From a virus (Duplodnaviria > Heunggongvirae > Uroviricota > Caudoviricetes): a DNA stretch of 5,206 nt. Shown piece by piece: positions 1-2,342 of the stretch (position 1 is its first letter; each line of letters begins with the position of its first letter). The DNA is taken from positions 1 through 5,206 of the IMG/VR virus record IMGVR_UViG_2740892423_000010; one strand, given 5' to 3'. A model generated the notes under the pieces. That model was not told the origin of the DNA, searched no databases, and saw nothing but the letters and a program-made list of their open reading frames with translations. The translations under genes were made by a program, and so were the position numbers.

Positions 1-87
1 CTCACTGAAGCTGAGAGCTTCTTCGCCTTCGGCAAGGCCTTCGAAGTATTCTTCGTAAGCCTTTTCCATGATTGTGTCGAAATCCAT
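1..87 (-). CDS. Partial small acidic hypothetical protein (start at 87, runs off left edge of window); translation begins MDFDTIMEKAYEEYFEGLAEGEEALSFSE
   Basis: Open frame on minus strand from ATG at 87..85 through position 1 with no stop. The ATG lies 1 nt after the upstream gene's TGA (TGATATG), suggesting coupled translation. Position matches a ydfB-like gene after ydfA in Qin-type prophages, but identity is not confirmed. Confidence 0.4.
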   Translation of the reverse strand, partial: MDFDTIMEKAYEEYFEGLAEGEEALSFSE

Positions 88-88
88 A

Positions 89-244
89 TCACTCGCCTGA
101 ATTTCTTTCCAGCCAGCGACGAGCGCCAGTTTCGGTTTTAAACGTTTTGCTTTTGGTATACGTCATCGCGGTGAATGTGCCGTCCTGGTTGGGAAACACG
201 CCGTATACCAGAGATTCGTTGTTGCCAAGATCGATAGTATCCAT
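89..244 (-). CDS. ydfA: Small phage protein, YdfA-like (51 aa: MDTIDLGNNESLVYGVFPNQDGTFTAMTYTKSKTFKTETGARRWLERNSGE)
   Basis: Minus-strand ORF ending with TGA at 91..89. I prefer the internal ATG at 244 because it is preceded by a GAGG Shine-Dalgarno about 5 nt upstream and gives a 51-aa product that matches my recollection of E. coli Qin-prophage YdfA. The ORF track's longer version starts at 322 (77 aa). Confidence 0.55.
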   Translation of the reverse strand: MDTIDLGNNESLVYGVFPNQDGTFTAMTYTKSKTFKTETGARRWLERNSGE

Positions 245-420
245 GTTGACCTCATTTCCCCTTAACGCCGGGGGAGCGGAACAAAAACCTGCTGCATAGT
301 TAAAGTTGAACCCTGCCGTCATGTTCTTACGCCTCGGGCTGGCTACTTATCCCCTGACCACTGCCTGGTAACTCGAGGTATTGCCCTGCGTTCTGTGGGG
401 CGGGGTGGGTTGGTGGAAAT

Positions 421-464
421 AATCTACAATTAAAAACTGTTTTGTGTCAACAGTTTTTAATTGT
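421..464 (-). promoter_or_regulatory. Operator-overlapping promoter for the ydfA-like operon: palindrome ACAATTAAAAACTGT-N9-ACAGTTTTTAATTGT (426..464) with minus-strand -35 TTGACA (450..445) and -10 TAGATT (426..421)
   Basis: Perfect 15-bp inverted repeat with 9-bp spacer read directly from sequence. On the minus strand the spacer contains a consensus TTGACA, followed 18 nt later by TAGATT. Near-identical to the palindrome at 1462..1500. Confidence 0.55.
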
Positions 465-473
465 TGGGCTGGG

Positions 474-501
474 TAAAAAAAACTCCCTCGAATGAGGGAG
501 T
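474..501 (-). terminator. Rho-independent terminator ending the repressor-antitoxin-toxin operon
   Basis: On the minus strand: GC-rich hairpin ACTCCCTC-ATTC-GAGGGAGT (501..482) followed by a run of 8 T (plus-strand A-run 475..482), placed 17 nt after the toxin stop at 518. Confidence 0.6.
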
Positions 502-517
502 ATGAAAATTGTTCAGT

Positions 518-805
518 TCAGATAGGGAAGGGAAATTGTCGGCGGGCATGCACAATATTTGCAATTTCAATGCTTGAAGCTGCTACTCGGTACAAAACGA
601 TATAATTAGGGTGAACCACAATTTCCCGCAAACCGGATACTCGATCACTTGGCGGATATAGATATGGATGCTCGGAGAGGGCTAAAACAGACGTTTCAAT
701 ACGTATTTTTAGTCTGCGTGCTGCAGGAATATTTTCCTTAGCAATATAGGCTACGATCTGACGCAAATCATCGCGAGCAGATGGTAGCCATAAAATGGGT
801 AACAT
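518..805 (-). CDS. parE: ParE/RelE-family type II toxin (95 aa)
   Basis: Translation has the ParE-like pattern (N-terminal DL..I..YI helix region, C-terminal YRV...I.I..I.HARR). Its ATG overlaps the upstream antitoxin stop by 1 nt (TAATG on minus strand), typical of toxin-antitoxin coupling. Confidence 0.88.
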   Translation of the reverse strand: MLPILWLPSARDDLRQIVAYIAKENIPAARRLKIRIETSVLALSEHPYLYPPSDRVSGLREIVVHPNYIVLYRVAASSIEIANIVHARRQFPFPI

Positions 806-996
806 TACTCGCTCCTGTTAGTTACAGCAATTTGAGCAATAAGATTTTCTATTTCAGCCATTACCTCGTCATGTGGAATTGAGGGACGAGGGTCTGCAAG
901 GCTTGACGCCACTTTAGCGCGCAACCATTCGTTGTAACTGTTTTCTTGTTCGGTAGTTTCGAATTCTGAAACTATCGGAGAAAGGGCTGTACTCAT
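805..996 (-). CDS. paaA: Small antitoxin, PaaA-like (ParE-associated antitoxin), 63 aa
   Basis: 63-aa ORF directly upstream of and overlapping the toxin start. Strong RBS (GAGGAG, about 7 nt spacing). N-terminal half (ALSP.VSEFET.EQENSYNEWLRAKVA.SLADPRP.IPHDEV) matches my recollection of PaaA2 from E. coli O157:H7; family assignment is not search-verified. Confidence 0.8.
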   Translation of the reverse strand: MSTALSPIVSEFETTEQENSYNEWLRAKVASSLADPRPSIPHDEVMAEIENLIAQIAVTNRSE

Positions 997-1023
997 GGCA
1001 TAACTCCTCTTCTTGTACAGTGG

Positions 1024-1425
1024 TCATGCCCGGCGGCTTTTTTGTGCCGCCAACCACCGGGCAATGGTTTCTTCCATTGATTTTTTCTTGTCTTTGATTT
1101 CTTGAAGCATTTTTTCTTGGTCTTCCTCTGGAAACGCACTAAAAGCCTGGAGCAGTTCGCGTTGGCGAGGGCCAATTTTCATCGTGTCAGGGGTGAAAAT
1201 TTGCTCCCCCTCTTCAGGAGGCAATAAAAACCAATGCAATGGATGCCCTGTAACCTCAACCAGTTTATCCAAACTTGAGGCTTTAGGTGTAGCCTTACCG
1301 CTGACCCATTGTTGAACAGTTTGTTGTGTCACACCAATTCTACGGGCCAGCTCAGCCTGGCTCCATCCAGTTTCCTGAAGAAGCTTGCTGATTCTGTACA
1401 TAGATACTTCTAGAGCGTTCATCAT
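1024..1425 (-). CDS. paaR: HTH XRE-family phage repressor, DicA/PaaR-type (CI analogue), 133 aa
   Basis: Helix-turn-helix motif (WSQAELARRIGVTQQTVQQWVSG) plus a C-terminal segment (ELLQAFSAFPEEDQEKMLQEI) resembling DicA-type repressors. Divergent from a Cro-like gene and co-oriented with the antitoxin/toxin. No SD before the ATG at 1425, but a TAAAAT -10 sits 6 nt upstream, suggesting a leaderless mRNA. Alternative in-frame start at 1401 (MYRISK...). Confidence 0.85.
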   Translation of the reverse strand: MMNALEVSMYRISKLLQETGWSQAELARRIGVTQQTVQQWVSGKATPKASSLDKLVEVTGHPLHWFLLPPEEGEQIFTPDTMKIGPRQRELLQAFSAFPEEDQEKMLQEIKDKKKSMEETIARWLAAQKSRRA

Positions 1426-1534
1426 TATTCAATTTTACAGGTAAATACTGTTAAAAGCATCACAATAAAAAACTGTTGATCGCGTACAGTTTTTTATTGT
1501 AGGCTTTGCCTGTAGTTTTTTAGAGGAGGGCAAA
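1426..1534. promoter_or_regulatory. Divergent immunity control region: operator palindrome ACAATAAAAAACTGT-N9-ACAGTTTTTTATTGT (1462..1500), candidate plus-strand promoter for the Cro-like gene (-35 TTGATC 1476..1481, -10 TAGGCT 1500..1505), candidate minus-strand repressor promoter (-10 TAAAAT = plus 1432..1437)
   Basis: Perfect 15-bp inverted repeat with 9-bp spacer read from sequence. Promoter hexamers are by-eye matches to sigma70 consensus. The plus-strand promoter and operator have the same geometry as the 421..464 unit. Strong RBS AGAGGAGGG (1522..1530) before the ATG at 1535. Possible degenerate half-site TGTAGTTTTTTAG at 1511..1523. Confidence 0.6.
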
Positions 1535-1807
1535 ATGCTAGATAGCACTCGCGAAAAAATTAGGCAGAAATACACTCAAGCTGAAATAGGTCGTTATATG
1601 GGGGTCGCTCAACAGACTGTTTGGCAATGGTTTAGCTTTGGTGTTCCCCCAAAGCAGGTAATTCCGTTATGTCAGCTAATGAAGTGGGAAGTTACCCCGC
1701 ATGAAATTCGCCCTGATATTTATCCTAACCCAACCGACGGGCTGCCTTGTGGAAATAAGTGTATGGCGAATGAATCTCTGGCGGTGAACAATGAAAATCA
1801 CCCCTGA
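1535..1807 (+). CDS. ydaS: Cro-like HTH regulator, YdaS family (90 aa)
   Basis: Strong RBS. HTH motif (AEIGRYMGVAQQTVWQW) followed by a VTPHEIRPDIYPNPTDG segment that I recognise as characteristic of YdaS-type Cro analogues. Divergent from the repressor gene. Confidence 0.85.
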   Translation: MLDSTREKIRQKYTQAEIGRYMGVAQQTVWQWFSFGVPPKQVIPLCQLMKWEVTPHEIRPDIYPNPTDGLPCGNKCMANESLAVNNENHP

Positions 1808-2342
1808 ACAGGTTCGTGAGGCTCTGGATGCCTGGGTATGCCGACCAGGAATGACACAGGAGCAGGCGACGATATTAATCACGGAAGCATTCTGGGCTCT
1901 GAAAAAACGCCCGAACATTGATGTTCAACGCGTCACGTTTGATGATGGCGCGGTTGATCAACGGGCGCTGGGCGTTAACCGGGTGAAGATATTCGAACGC
2001 TGGAAAGCTATCGACACCAGGGATAAGCGTGAAAAATTCACGGCGCTGATTCCGGCAATTATGGAGGCTATCCGGATCAGCGATTTCAGGTTGTATTGTG
2101 AAATTACTGACGGAAAAAGCATTACGTACATGATCGCCGGGTTAAACAAAGAATATGGCGATGTGGTGGAGTCCGGGCTGCTTTTTGCGGATCCAGCTGT
2201 TGTGGAACGTGAGACTGACGAGCTTATAGAAAAAGCTATTGCTTTCAAGCACGCGTATCGTCAGCAATACCAATATTACTTTGCAGATAAACAAATATCT
2301 GTCTGGGGTTCGTATGAGTATCGATGCACTACGATGGGCTAA
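1791..2342 (+). CDS. ydaT: YdaT-like protein (CII-analogue candidate), 183 aa
   Basis: ATG at 1791 overlaps the ydaS-like 3' end by 17 nt (coupled translation). Position immediately after a YdaS-type Cro matches the ydaS-ydaT pair of Rac/CP-933-type prophages. Family assignment rests on position and recalled similarity, not a search. Confidence 0.7.
   Translation: MKITPEQVREALDAWVCRPGMTQEQATILITEAFWALKKRPNIDVQRVTFDDGAVDQRALGVNRVKIFERWKAIDTRDKREKFTALIPAIMEAIRISDFRLYCEITDGKSITYMIAGLNKEYGDVVESGLLFADPAVVERETDELIEKAIAFKHAYRQQYQYYFADKQISVWGSYEYRCTTMG

Follow-up and report, generated by a model that had tools for sequence, protein, structure and literature searches.

Two very small open reading frames lie at the left end of the window, the 5206-nt stretch of viral DNA analyzed here, and the second of them runs off its edge. 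To which operon do these frames belong, what switches that operon on and off, and what does it encode beyond the edge? A first-pass annotation of the same DNA placed them in a repressor-controlled operon of the kind found in Qin-type prophages. We find that positions 1..464 (minus strand) are very probably the promoter-proximal end of the early-left (PL-type) operon of a lambdoid E. coli prophage of the Qin/Rac/CP-933P family. The arrangement as such, a dicB-type early-left operon that opens with ydfA and ydfB and is governed by a switch of the PaaR/DicA family, has already been described.

Sequence beyond the left edge was read from near-identical contigs. The exact mosaic of the window could be reached only through an exact-sequence look-up of its 183-aa YdaT-like protein, which led to eight contigs. 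The best match, L013, is 99.94% identical over 5206 nt (3 mismatches), and L020 is 99.92% identical over the same length (4 mismatches). Coverage of the window by complete E. coli genomes reaches 72% at most, and phage records account for no more than 27% of positions 1..1600. Positions 1..1500 are matched in 4254 of 5426 complete E. coli genomes; the closest of these over that part, H1, is 98.8% identical. In other loci, mosaic breakpoints fall at window positions ~113 and ~255. Judged from its sequence, the window is a mosaic and part of a lambdoid prophage. About 7 kb further right, two sister contigs (L013 and L015) have a gene of the RIP family, presumably that for Shiga toxin A.

Table 1. 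Features located in the window, with coordinates in window positions (operators and promoter as predicted from sequence)
Feature	Position	Strand	Description
ydfB, 5' part	1..87	-	29 of 42 codons, ATG 87..85; runs past the left edge
ydfA, 51 aa + TGA stop	89..244	-	DUF1391 family (Pfam, PHROG, K-12 identity); ATG 244..242, 51 codons (244..92), TGA 91..89
GAGG Shine-Dalgarno of ydfA	250..253	-	5 nt before ATG, read from sequence
Operon 5' leader, ~170 nt	245..414	-	~255..411 is a separately conserved module
PL-type promoter	421..450	-	TTGACA 450..445, 18-nt spacer, TAGATT 426..421
OL-type operator	426..464	.	perfect 16+16 nt inverted repeat 426..441/449..464, 7-nt centre
Intrinsic terminator	482..501	-	8-bp stem, 5 G-C pairs, T7 tail; conserved in relatives
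ParE-family toxin, 95 aa	518..805	-	Pfam ParE_toxin E=6.6e-16; PDB 5CW7_B E=1.2e-37
PaaA2-family antitoxin, 63 aa	805..996	-	Pfam PaaA2 E=1.1e-21; PDB 3ZBE E=4.4e-22
Prophage repressor, 133 aa	1024..1425	-	HTH_3 N-terminal and PaaR/DicA-type C-terminal domain (Pfam)
OR-type operator	1462..1500	.	15+15 nt inverted repeat, same half-site, 9-nt centre
Cro-like regulator, YdaS family, 90 aa	1535..1807	+	Pfam YdaS_toxin E=8e-10; divergent from repressor

The two small genes

The first frame had been called YdfA-like from its appearance, and database comparison confirms this. Its product matches Pfam PF07151 (DUF1391) with 98.3 bits against a cutoff of 27.3 (E=1.9e-28), and residues 2-49 align with profile positions 1-48, the full length of the profile, as expected of a family member. 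It also matches PHROG 751. The protein is identical to K-12 YdfA at 50 of 51 residues (98%) and 88% identical to YdaF, the K-12 paralogue in Rac. PGAP annotates the same 156-nt coding sequence in relatives. The ydfA Shine-Dalgarno motif is kept wherever ydfA follows the leader, Qin of K-12 included, and is changed in L010 and in phages Evi and 640R1, which have a different gene after the leader, as well as in Rac.

A single base (T, position 88) separates the ydfA stop codon from the next ATG. The junction reads GAG TGA T ATG, exactly the TGATATG that the first-pass annotation had noted, and K-12 has the same TGAtATG between ydfA and ydfB. The frame that begins here was described as an acidic one continuing past position 1. 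It is indeed open at position 1, 10 of its 29 residues are D or E and one is K, and all 29 are identical to the N-terminus of K-12 YdfB, which identifies it as ydfB. The comparison with YdfA and YdfB proposed for the two frames has yielded homologues for both, 98% and 100% identical (the latter over 29 codons). In L013 the ydfB gene is complete (8169..8297, 42 aa), with 13 codons and the stop beyond the window edge. The YdfB protein of L013 matches PHROG 2061 (E=1.3e-27), and neither Pfam nor NCBIfam has a model for YdfB.

The homologue search showed YdfA to belong to a narrow family, at least 78% identical and found only in Escherichia, Shigella and Salmonella. An alignment of 25 variants, with identities as low as 78%, has 12 invariant and 20 nearly invariant columns. 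YdfA and YdfB are real conserved genes rather than chance frames, and their translation is probably coupled.

Structure and family searches say little about function. The AF2 model of YdfA consists of a beta-hairpin and a helix (pLDDT 75.6, pTM 0.39). A Foldseek search of the PDB with this model gave nothing below E=2, and phmmer of YdfA against the PDB gave no significant match and no solved homologue. With YdfA, YdfB, YdfC and the extra L013 ORFs mentioned below, NCBIfam and PHROG returned only families of 'unknown function'. Growth is unaffected when the K-12 operon is induced without dicF and dicB, so ydfABC is not toxic at that expression level. We tentatively suggest, with low confidence, that YdfA and YdfB may be non-toxic, protein-binding accessory factors of early phage development, in the manner of the small proteins from the PL operon of lambda, rather than inhibitors of division.

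Promoter, paired operators and repressor

Both frames had been placed downstream of an operator-promoter at 421..464, and the palindrome and the TTGACA/18/TAGATT promoter are present there. The promoter matches the consensus at 10 of 12 positions and is the only sigma-70-like site found in 1..1600. The 39-bp OL-type palindrome overlaps both its -35 and -10 hexamers. The OR-type repeat lies between the repressor and cro-like genes, 997 nt away from the OL-type repeat, and its arms differ from those of the latter at one position. The shared half-site, ACAATWAAAAACTGT, occurs five times in the window against 0.47 expected (0 of 200 shuffles reach five).

The palindrome was found in all 19 fetched loci that carry the 133-aa repressor, at both positions in 18 of them and as one exact copy in L008. 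None of the six loci with a different repressor has it (Qin, Rac, HK022 and phages Evi, Tritos and 640R1). This is the pattern expected for OR/OL-type operators that belong to a single immunity specificity. The divergent pair of repressor and cro-like genes, with an operator in common with a distant leftward promoter, also corresponds to the lambdoid immunity layout. From co-occurrence and position, the repressor is predicted to bind the palindrome, the sequence of which is unlike the operators of DicA and PaaR2. Transcription of the repressor, antitoxin and toxin genes ends at the intrinsic terminator, a short distance before the PL-type promoter, which is thereby shielded from the repressor operon.

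The repressor itself is a relative within the PaaR/DicA family. Its C-terminal 98 aa are 42% identical to PaaR2. The N-terminal helix-turn-helix gives no alignment with that of PaaR2, which fits the different operator of the window. We considered whether the protein is DicA and rejected this, because identity is 28% over 111 aa and the score on the NCBIfam DicA model (NF007257) is 52.6 bits, below the cutoff of 101. Among the 17 Pfam hits examined there is no match to Peptidase_S24 in the repressor, and no sign in this respect of a self-cleaving protein. Induction via RecA-mediated cleavage is thus not expected; an S24 domain is also missing from DicA and PaaR2, neither of which is SOS-inducible (PMC5069750, PMC8630535).

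Between the repressor and the terminator lie the antitoxin, a close paralogue of PaaA2 of O157:H7, and the toxin, a close paralogue of ParE2 of CP-933P. The window contains the three-component paaR-paaA-parE module together with its PL-type promoter; repression within this module is predicted.

[quoted passage not shown] The window resembles Qin in its DNA (95.7% identical over 1..282), in the downstream order seen in the same-mosaic contigs, and in having one operator in the divergent repressor/cro region and another in the operon promoter. In Qin these operators are TGTTAGTCATAACTAACA, between dicC and dicA, and TGTTAGTCATGGCTAA, in the dicB-operon promoter. The homology to Qin, however, extends no further than 45 nt upstream of ydfA. 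The promoter, operator and leader of the window are unrelated to those of Qin, and a toxin-antitoxin pair and a terminator stand between repressor and promoter. The window lacks the Qin operator TGTTAGTCATnnCTAACA and has another palindrome, which does not agree with repression by DicA or DicC. The system would work like that of Qin but is no member of the DicA regulon. Compared with Qin, the two-operator logic is retained, while the repressor is not DicA and the promoter and operator are of a different immunity type.

The switch itself matches the layout in the cryptic prophage CP-933P of E. coli O157:H7 (promoters PRM, PR and PL933P), in which PaaR2 acts like lambda CI and YdaS like Cro (Jurenas et al., PMC8630535). 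There, the promoter PL933P lies just past the toxin-antitoxin genes and is repressed ~100-fold by PaaR2 or YdaS, and YdaS binds the operators of PaaR2 and represses PL (PMC8630535). The PL-type promoter of the window is the positional equivalent of PL933P, which is experimentally active (PMC8630535). The two prophages have their genes in an identical order, with a repressor (without S24, as PaaR2), a PaaA2-type antitoxin, a ParE-type toxin, PL with operators, the same leader and a DUF1391 gene, as well as divergent ydaS-ydaT on the other side. For instance, L030 is a CP-933P-type locus with a ParE 100% identical to ParE2, and its PL promoter feeds the same leader and a DUF1391 gene. They differ in that CP-933P has several GTTTAGTAA repeats and the window a single long palindrome with the half-site arms given above. 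The -35 and -10 hexamers of CP-933P are also unlike those of the window, and ydfB is replaced by another ORF in CP-933P-type loci.

Rac of K-12 (racR, leader, ydaG, ydaF, kilS, kilR) resembles the window in its leader, in the DUF1391 paralogue YdaF and in a division inhibitor downstream. It differs in having RacR and other operators, in the presence of ydaG between the leader and the DUF1391 gene, in the absence of ydfB, and in kilR taking the place of dicB. More generally, the layout recalls PL/OL of lambda, a leftward promoter controlled by repressor and Cro that leads to small accessory genes, a division inhibitor, recombination genes, xis and int. It departs from the N-nutL arrangement of lambda in that no N-like gene was found between the promoter and int in L013.

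We observed directly the gene identities, the anatomy of promoter and operators, the terminator, the joint occurrence of repressor and operator, and the order of the genes that follow in near-identical contigs. By analogy to DicA/dicB of Qin and PaaR2/YdaS/PL933P of CP-933P, binding, repression and transcript extent may be envisaged as follows. In the lysogen, the 133-aa repressor would bind the palindrome at 426..464 and its twin at 1462..1500, as in Qin and CP-933P, and the operon would be off; occupancy of a palindrome that spans the -35 to -10 region would block initiation. After the switch, the Cro-like YdaS protein would probably bind both operators. On derepression, a transcript would start near 414, cross the leader of ~170 nt and reach the stacked ydfA and ydfB genes. 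It may then extend through ydfC, the stretch with DicF or its allele, dicB, ydfD, the RecE-like exonuclease, xis and int.

Beyond the left edge in near-identical contigs: dicB and two forms of DicF

In all eight same-mosaic contigs the minus strand continues with ydfB, ydfC, a DicF locus, dicB, ydfD, an exonuclease gene, xis and int. [quoted passage not shown] The dicB product scores 129 bits on the NCBIfam model CellDivInhibDicB (cutoff 100). DicB blocks formation of the FtsZ ring. Further along lie ydfD (DUF1482), the RecE/YdfE-type exonuclease, xis and int, and then chromosomal potC. The expectation that host-directed effectors would be encoded just to the left was borne out in these contigs, all of which have dicB, ydfD and the DicF locus. 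For the window itself, a dicB-type continuation is supported as read from near-identical contigs, with mosaic breakpoints nearby. Over the 19 loci with the repressor of the window, dicB was found in 15 and kilR in 4; it is in the four kilR loci that another sequence has taken the place of ydfB, with the breakpoint at window position ~113.

The search for DicF to the left, suggested in the first-pass annotation, had a mixed outcome. Canonical DicF is present in two of the eight same-mosaic contigs (L015 and L017). The other six, among them L013 and L020, the two best matches of the window, carry an allele that scores 34.1 against an Rfam gathering score of 48. In this allele the terminator stem is kept, the 5' part is replaced and 10 nt shorter, and the loop is different. 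The genome H1 has canonical DicF (76.7 bits) together with dicB. Counting matches of 95% identity or more, about 328 records of complete genomes contain the allele, which corresponds to ~6% of the complete genomes of E. coli. Among the matches listed, nothing is annotated at the site of the allele, and a literature search with strings from its sequence gave no relevant match. In a simple duplex calculation with the ftsZ translation-initiation region, the allele reached -27.2 kcal/mol, worse than shuffled controls, and canonical DicF -38.5 kcal/mol.

The conserved leader and other readings of the locus

Between the promoter and ydfA, the leader is shared far more widely than the switch that precedes it. 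The module at ~255..411 is common to Rac, CP-933P and temperate phages, and is present in 3736 of 5426 complete E. coli genomes. It stands behind at least eight repressor types and ahead of three different first genes. From ~+8 to the Shine-Dalgarno it is 93% identical to the racR-ydaG leader of K-12 Rac; identity across loci is 86-98%, and 78% in the most divergent locus found. The homology begins ~10 nt past the -10 element, within ~10 nt of the predicted +1.

We looked for an RNA element that might account for this conservation. In gathering mode, Rfam found no family in the whole window; in E-value mode over 1..560, it gave only chance matches to the palindrome (mir-7552 and psRNA14, far below threshold). 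A structured RNA is not supported, because the minimum free energy is less stable than that of shuffles (z=+2.1). For 16 leader variants, RNAalifold returned -0.06 as the covariation term and a single compensatory pair, a comparison in which variation is too low to exclude structure.

Antitermination was also considered. The put RNA of HK022 is a two-stem element of ~70 nt immediately after PL, and a similar one follows PR. A put-like antiterminator was rejected for the leader: the local score against HK022 putL is 17 (shuffles 14.5 +/- 2.1), L013 has no second copy on the PR side, and the leader has neither covariation-supported stems nor unusual stability. A Rho-utilisation site is not supported either, since the leader is C-rich only in its first 30 nt (16 C, 5 G) and G-rich in the rest.

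Recent recombinational spread is the null hypothesis for the conservation of the leader. A more speculative idea, which taken as a whole we consider rather unlikely, has two forms. The leader may function in cis, as an RNA element or through a short upstream ORF, to control translation of the first gene or read-through of the DicF terminator to dicB, xis and int in lambdoid phages without N. In a second reading, the DicF allele of the closest contigs would be a re-targeted sRNA that no longer pairs with ftsZ.

Part of the leader could also be coding. The first-pass annotation set the right limit of the operon at 322, and a product begun there would be a 77-aa, N-terminally extended YdfA, for which 245..322 would be translated. 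The frame runs without interruption from 322 to 89, and ATG 322 has a GAGG 9 nt before it and is conserved in 18 of 18 leader variants. In some relatives a 3-nt indel and a -1/+3/+1 set of indels keep the frame open, and some gene callers give products of 76-83 aa. The 51-aa form alone, however, covers all 48 DUF1391 positions, and YdfA of Qin in K-12 is without the upstream extension sequence. The equivalent of ATG 322 opens an 18-codon ORF in Rac that stops before ydaG, and one of 6 codons in L027. L005-type leaders conserve the nucleotides with the middle in another frame, a pattern typical of non-coding sequence. Every locus in which ydfA follows the leader retains GAGG-N5-ATG at 244, and PGAP annotates 51 aa. 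Because its frame is not conserved across leader variants, we rejected the 77-aa ORF as a conserved product and regard this reading as very improbable; position 322 is the in-frame upstream ATG of a mechanical ORF and no supported gene start. Another reading concerns the genes themselves, which might be non-functional remnants in decaying prophages in which only DicF and DicB matter. NCBIfam and PHROG assign them no function, K-12 shows no phenotype when the operon is expressed without dicF and dicB, the YdfA family has the narrow host range described above, and some prophages replace ydfB or both genes. Against this, both genes are intact, with Shine-Dalgarno and start conserved, in thousands of genomes (the 4254 that match window positions 1..1500) and in free temperate phages such as Tritos and vB_EcoM-606R7, and YdfA keeps the invariant and nearly invariant columns of its alignment. 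We find it improbable that the genes are remnants.

Transcription might also come from elsewhere. The two genes are co-oriented with the repressor operon, and they could be expressed mainly by read-through from the repressor-PaaA2-ParE genes, on in the lysogen, with the palindrome irrelevant or acting as an RNA hairpin or terminator. A terminator scan does flag the palindrome at 426..464 as a hairpin, and the toxin-antitoxin operon of CP-933P is transcribed in both switch states (PMC8630535). Yet a G+C-rich terminator with a T7 tail precedes the promoter. The palindrome is rich in A+T (3 G-C pairs in 16), no T-run follows it, and a near-copy stands between the divergent repressor and cro genes, a place in which a terminator would not be expected. 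The palindrome also tracks repressor type across loci, and PL933P, the counterpart by position of the PL-type promoter, is an active repressible promoter (PMC8630535). We consider expression by read-through highly improbable and retain the PL-type promoter, predicted to be repressible, as the probable source of the ydfA-ydfB transcript.

The result mostly agrees with standard annotation, as PGAP calls ydfA and ydfB in thousands of E. coli genomes, and both the dicBF operon and the PaaR2/PL933P switch have been published. Two features are possibly worth bench work, the conserved leader and the unannotated DicF allele. The practical value of the analysis lies in the context that it provides: it ties the window to a lambdoid prophage, the early-left operon of which probably delivers DicB and a DicF-type sRNA. 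These effectors are linked to cell division and phage exclusion and, in EHEC, to the regulation of virulence.

The operon leader and the control region before it

By sequence comparison, the 5' leader of the minus-strand ydfA-ydfB operon (window 255-411) is a conserved module in its own right. It is 93% identical to the racR-ydaG leader of the K-12 prophage Rac, is found in 3736 of 5426 E. coli genomes and also occurs in the phages Evi, Tritos and 640R1. At least eight different repressor/operator sets precede it, and the homology starts ~10 nt past the -10 element. For this leader we found no RNA family, no covariation, no similarity to put and no uORF whose reading frame is conserved.

The prophage repressor and the PL-type promoter are separated by a toxin-antitoxin pair (see table). 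Two relative loci (L028 and L030) carry similar RelB/ParE pairs in the same slot, with other repressor types in front. From its sequence, the repressor (1024-1425, minus strand) looks like a domain-swapped relative of PaaR. Identity to PaaR2 of the O157:H7 prophage CP-933P is 42% across the C-terminal 98 aa, which include the tail ELLQxFSAFPE...ARWxAAQKxRRA common to both proteins. The N-terminal HTHs of the two proteins do not align, which matches an operator sequence wholly different from that of CP-933P. Because a TAAAAT hexamer, located by eye in window 1426-1445 (minus strand), ends 6 nt 5' of the repressor ATG at 1425, and no Shine-Dalgarno sequence was seen by eye in the same interval, the repressor mRNA may be leaderless. 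Leaderless mRNAs have been reported for lambda cI and PaaR2 (PMC8630535).

Features of the window and of closely related contigs
Feature	Location	Strand	Remarks
Operon 5' leader	window 255-411	minus	sequence comparison
PaaA2/ParE-type toxin-antitoxin pair	window 518-996	minus	PDB 3ZBE, E=4e-22; 5CW7, E=1e-37
YdaT-like (CII-analogue) protein	window 1791-2342	plus	183 aa
DicF allele	L013 7159-7209	minus	in a contig with 99.94% identity, ~1 kb to the left of the window
74-aa ORF	L013 7532-7756	opposite to operon	TTG start, AGGAGG ribosome-binding site
59-aa ORF	L013 7728-7907	operon strand
RIP-family gene	L013 20258-20552; L015 20252-20552		319 aa; Pfam PF00161, precomputed

A DicF allele in closely related contigs

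The DicF allele found in the closest contig, L013, recurs in six others (L008, L014, L016, L018, L019 and L020) and in ~328 complete E. coli genome records; among the genome matches listed, its site is without any annotation. Compared with canonical DicF, it retains the terminator stem but has a replaced 5' region, shortened by 10 nt, and a different loop. Its flanks are ~95% identical to K-12, and its Rfam score of 34.1 is below the gathering score of 48. The duplex predicted with the ftsZ initiation region is weaker than that of canonical DicF (-27.2 versus -38.5 kcal/mol) and not better than those of shuffled sequences. Between ydfC and the DicF leader (L013 7532-7907), the near-identical contigs contain two additional ORFs, both missing from Qin, whose only matches are to PHROG families without a known function.

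Four relatives (L003, L006, L007 and L012, at ~12260-13610) have the same repressor and operator as the window. They encode a YdfA variant of 50 aa and carry canonical DicF and an Ash/Rha-type gene; ydfB is replaced by a 124-aa ORF, and dicB by kilR. The mosaic breakpoint of these loci lies at window ~113, within the 3' end of ydfA. Prophages of this type also carry isrK- and C4-type RNAs (Rfam matches in L003).

The right side of the prophage

The YdaT-like protein is longer in the window than in relatives (141 or 173 aa). Its C-terminal end, which overlaps the start of a DnaT-domain replication gene, is particular to the window's mosaic; homology to L001 and L005 ends at 2273. In L013 and L015, the same prophage contains a RIP-family gene ~7 kb beyond the right end of the window, preceded by a DNA methyltransferase gene, with tRNA genes in between in L013. 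This gene presumably encodes Shiga toxin subunit A, and its presence in the same prophage suggests that the window may come from an Stx-converting prophage, integrated beside potC.
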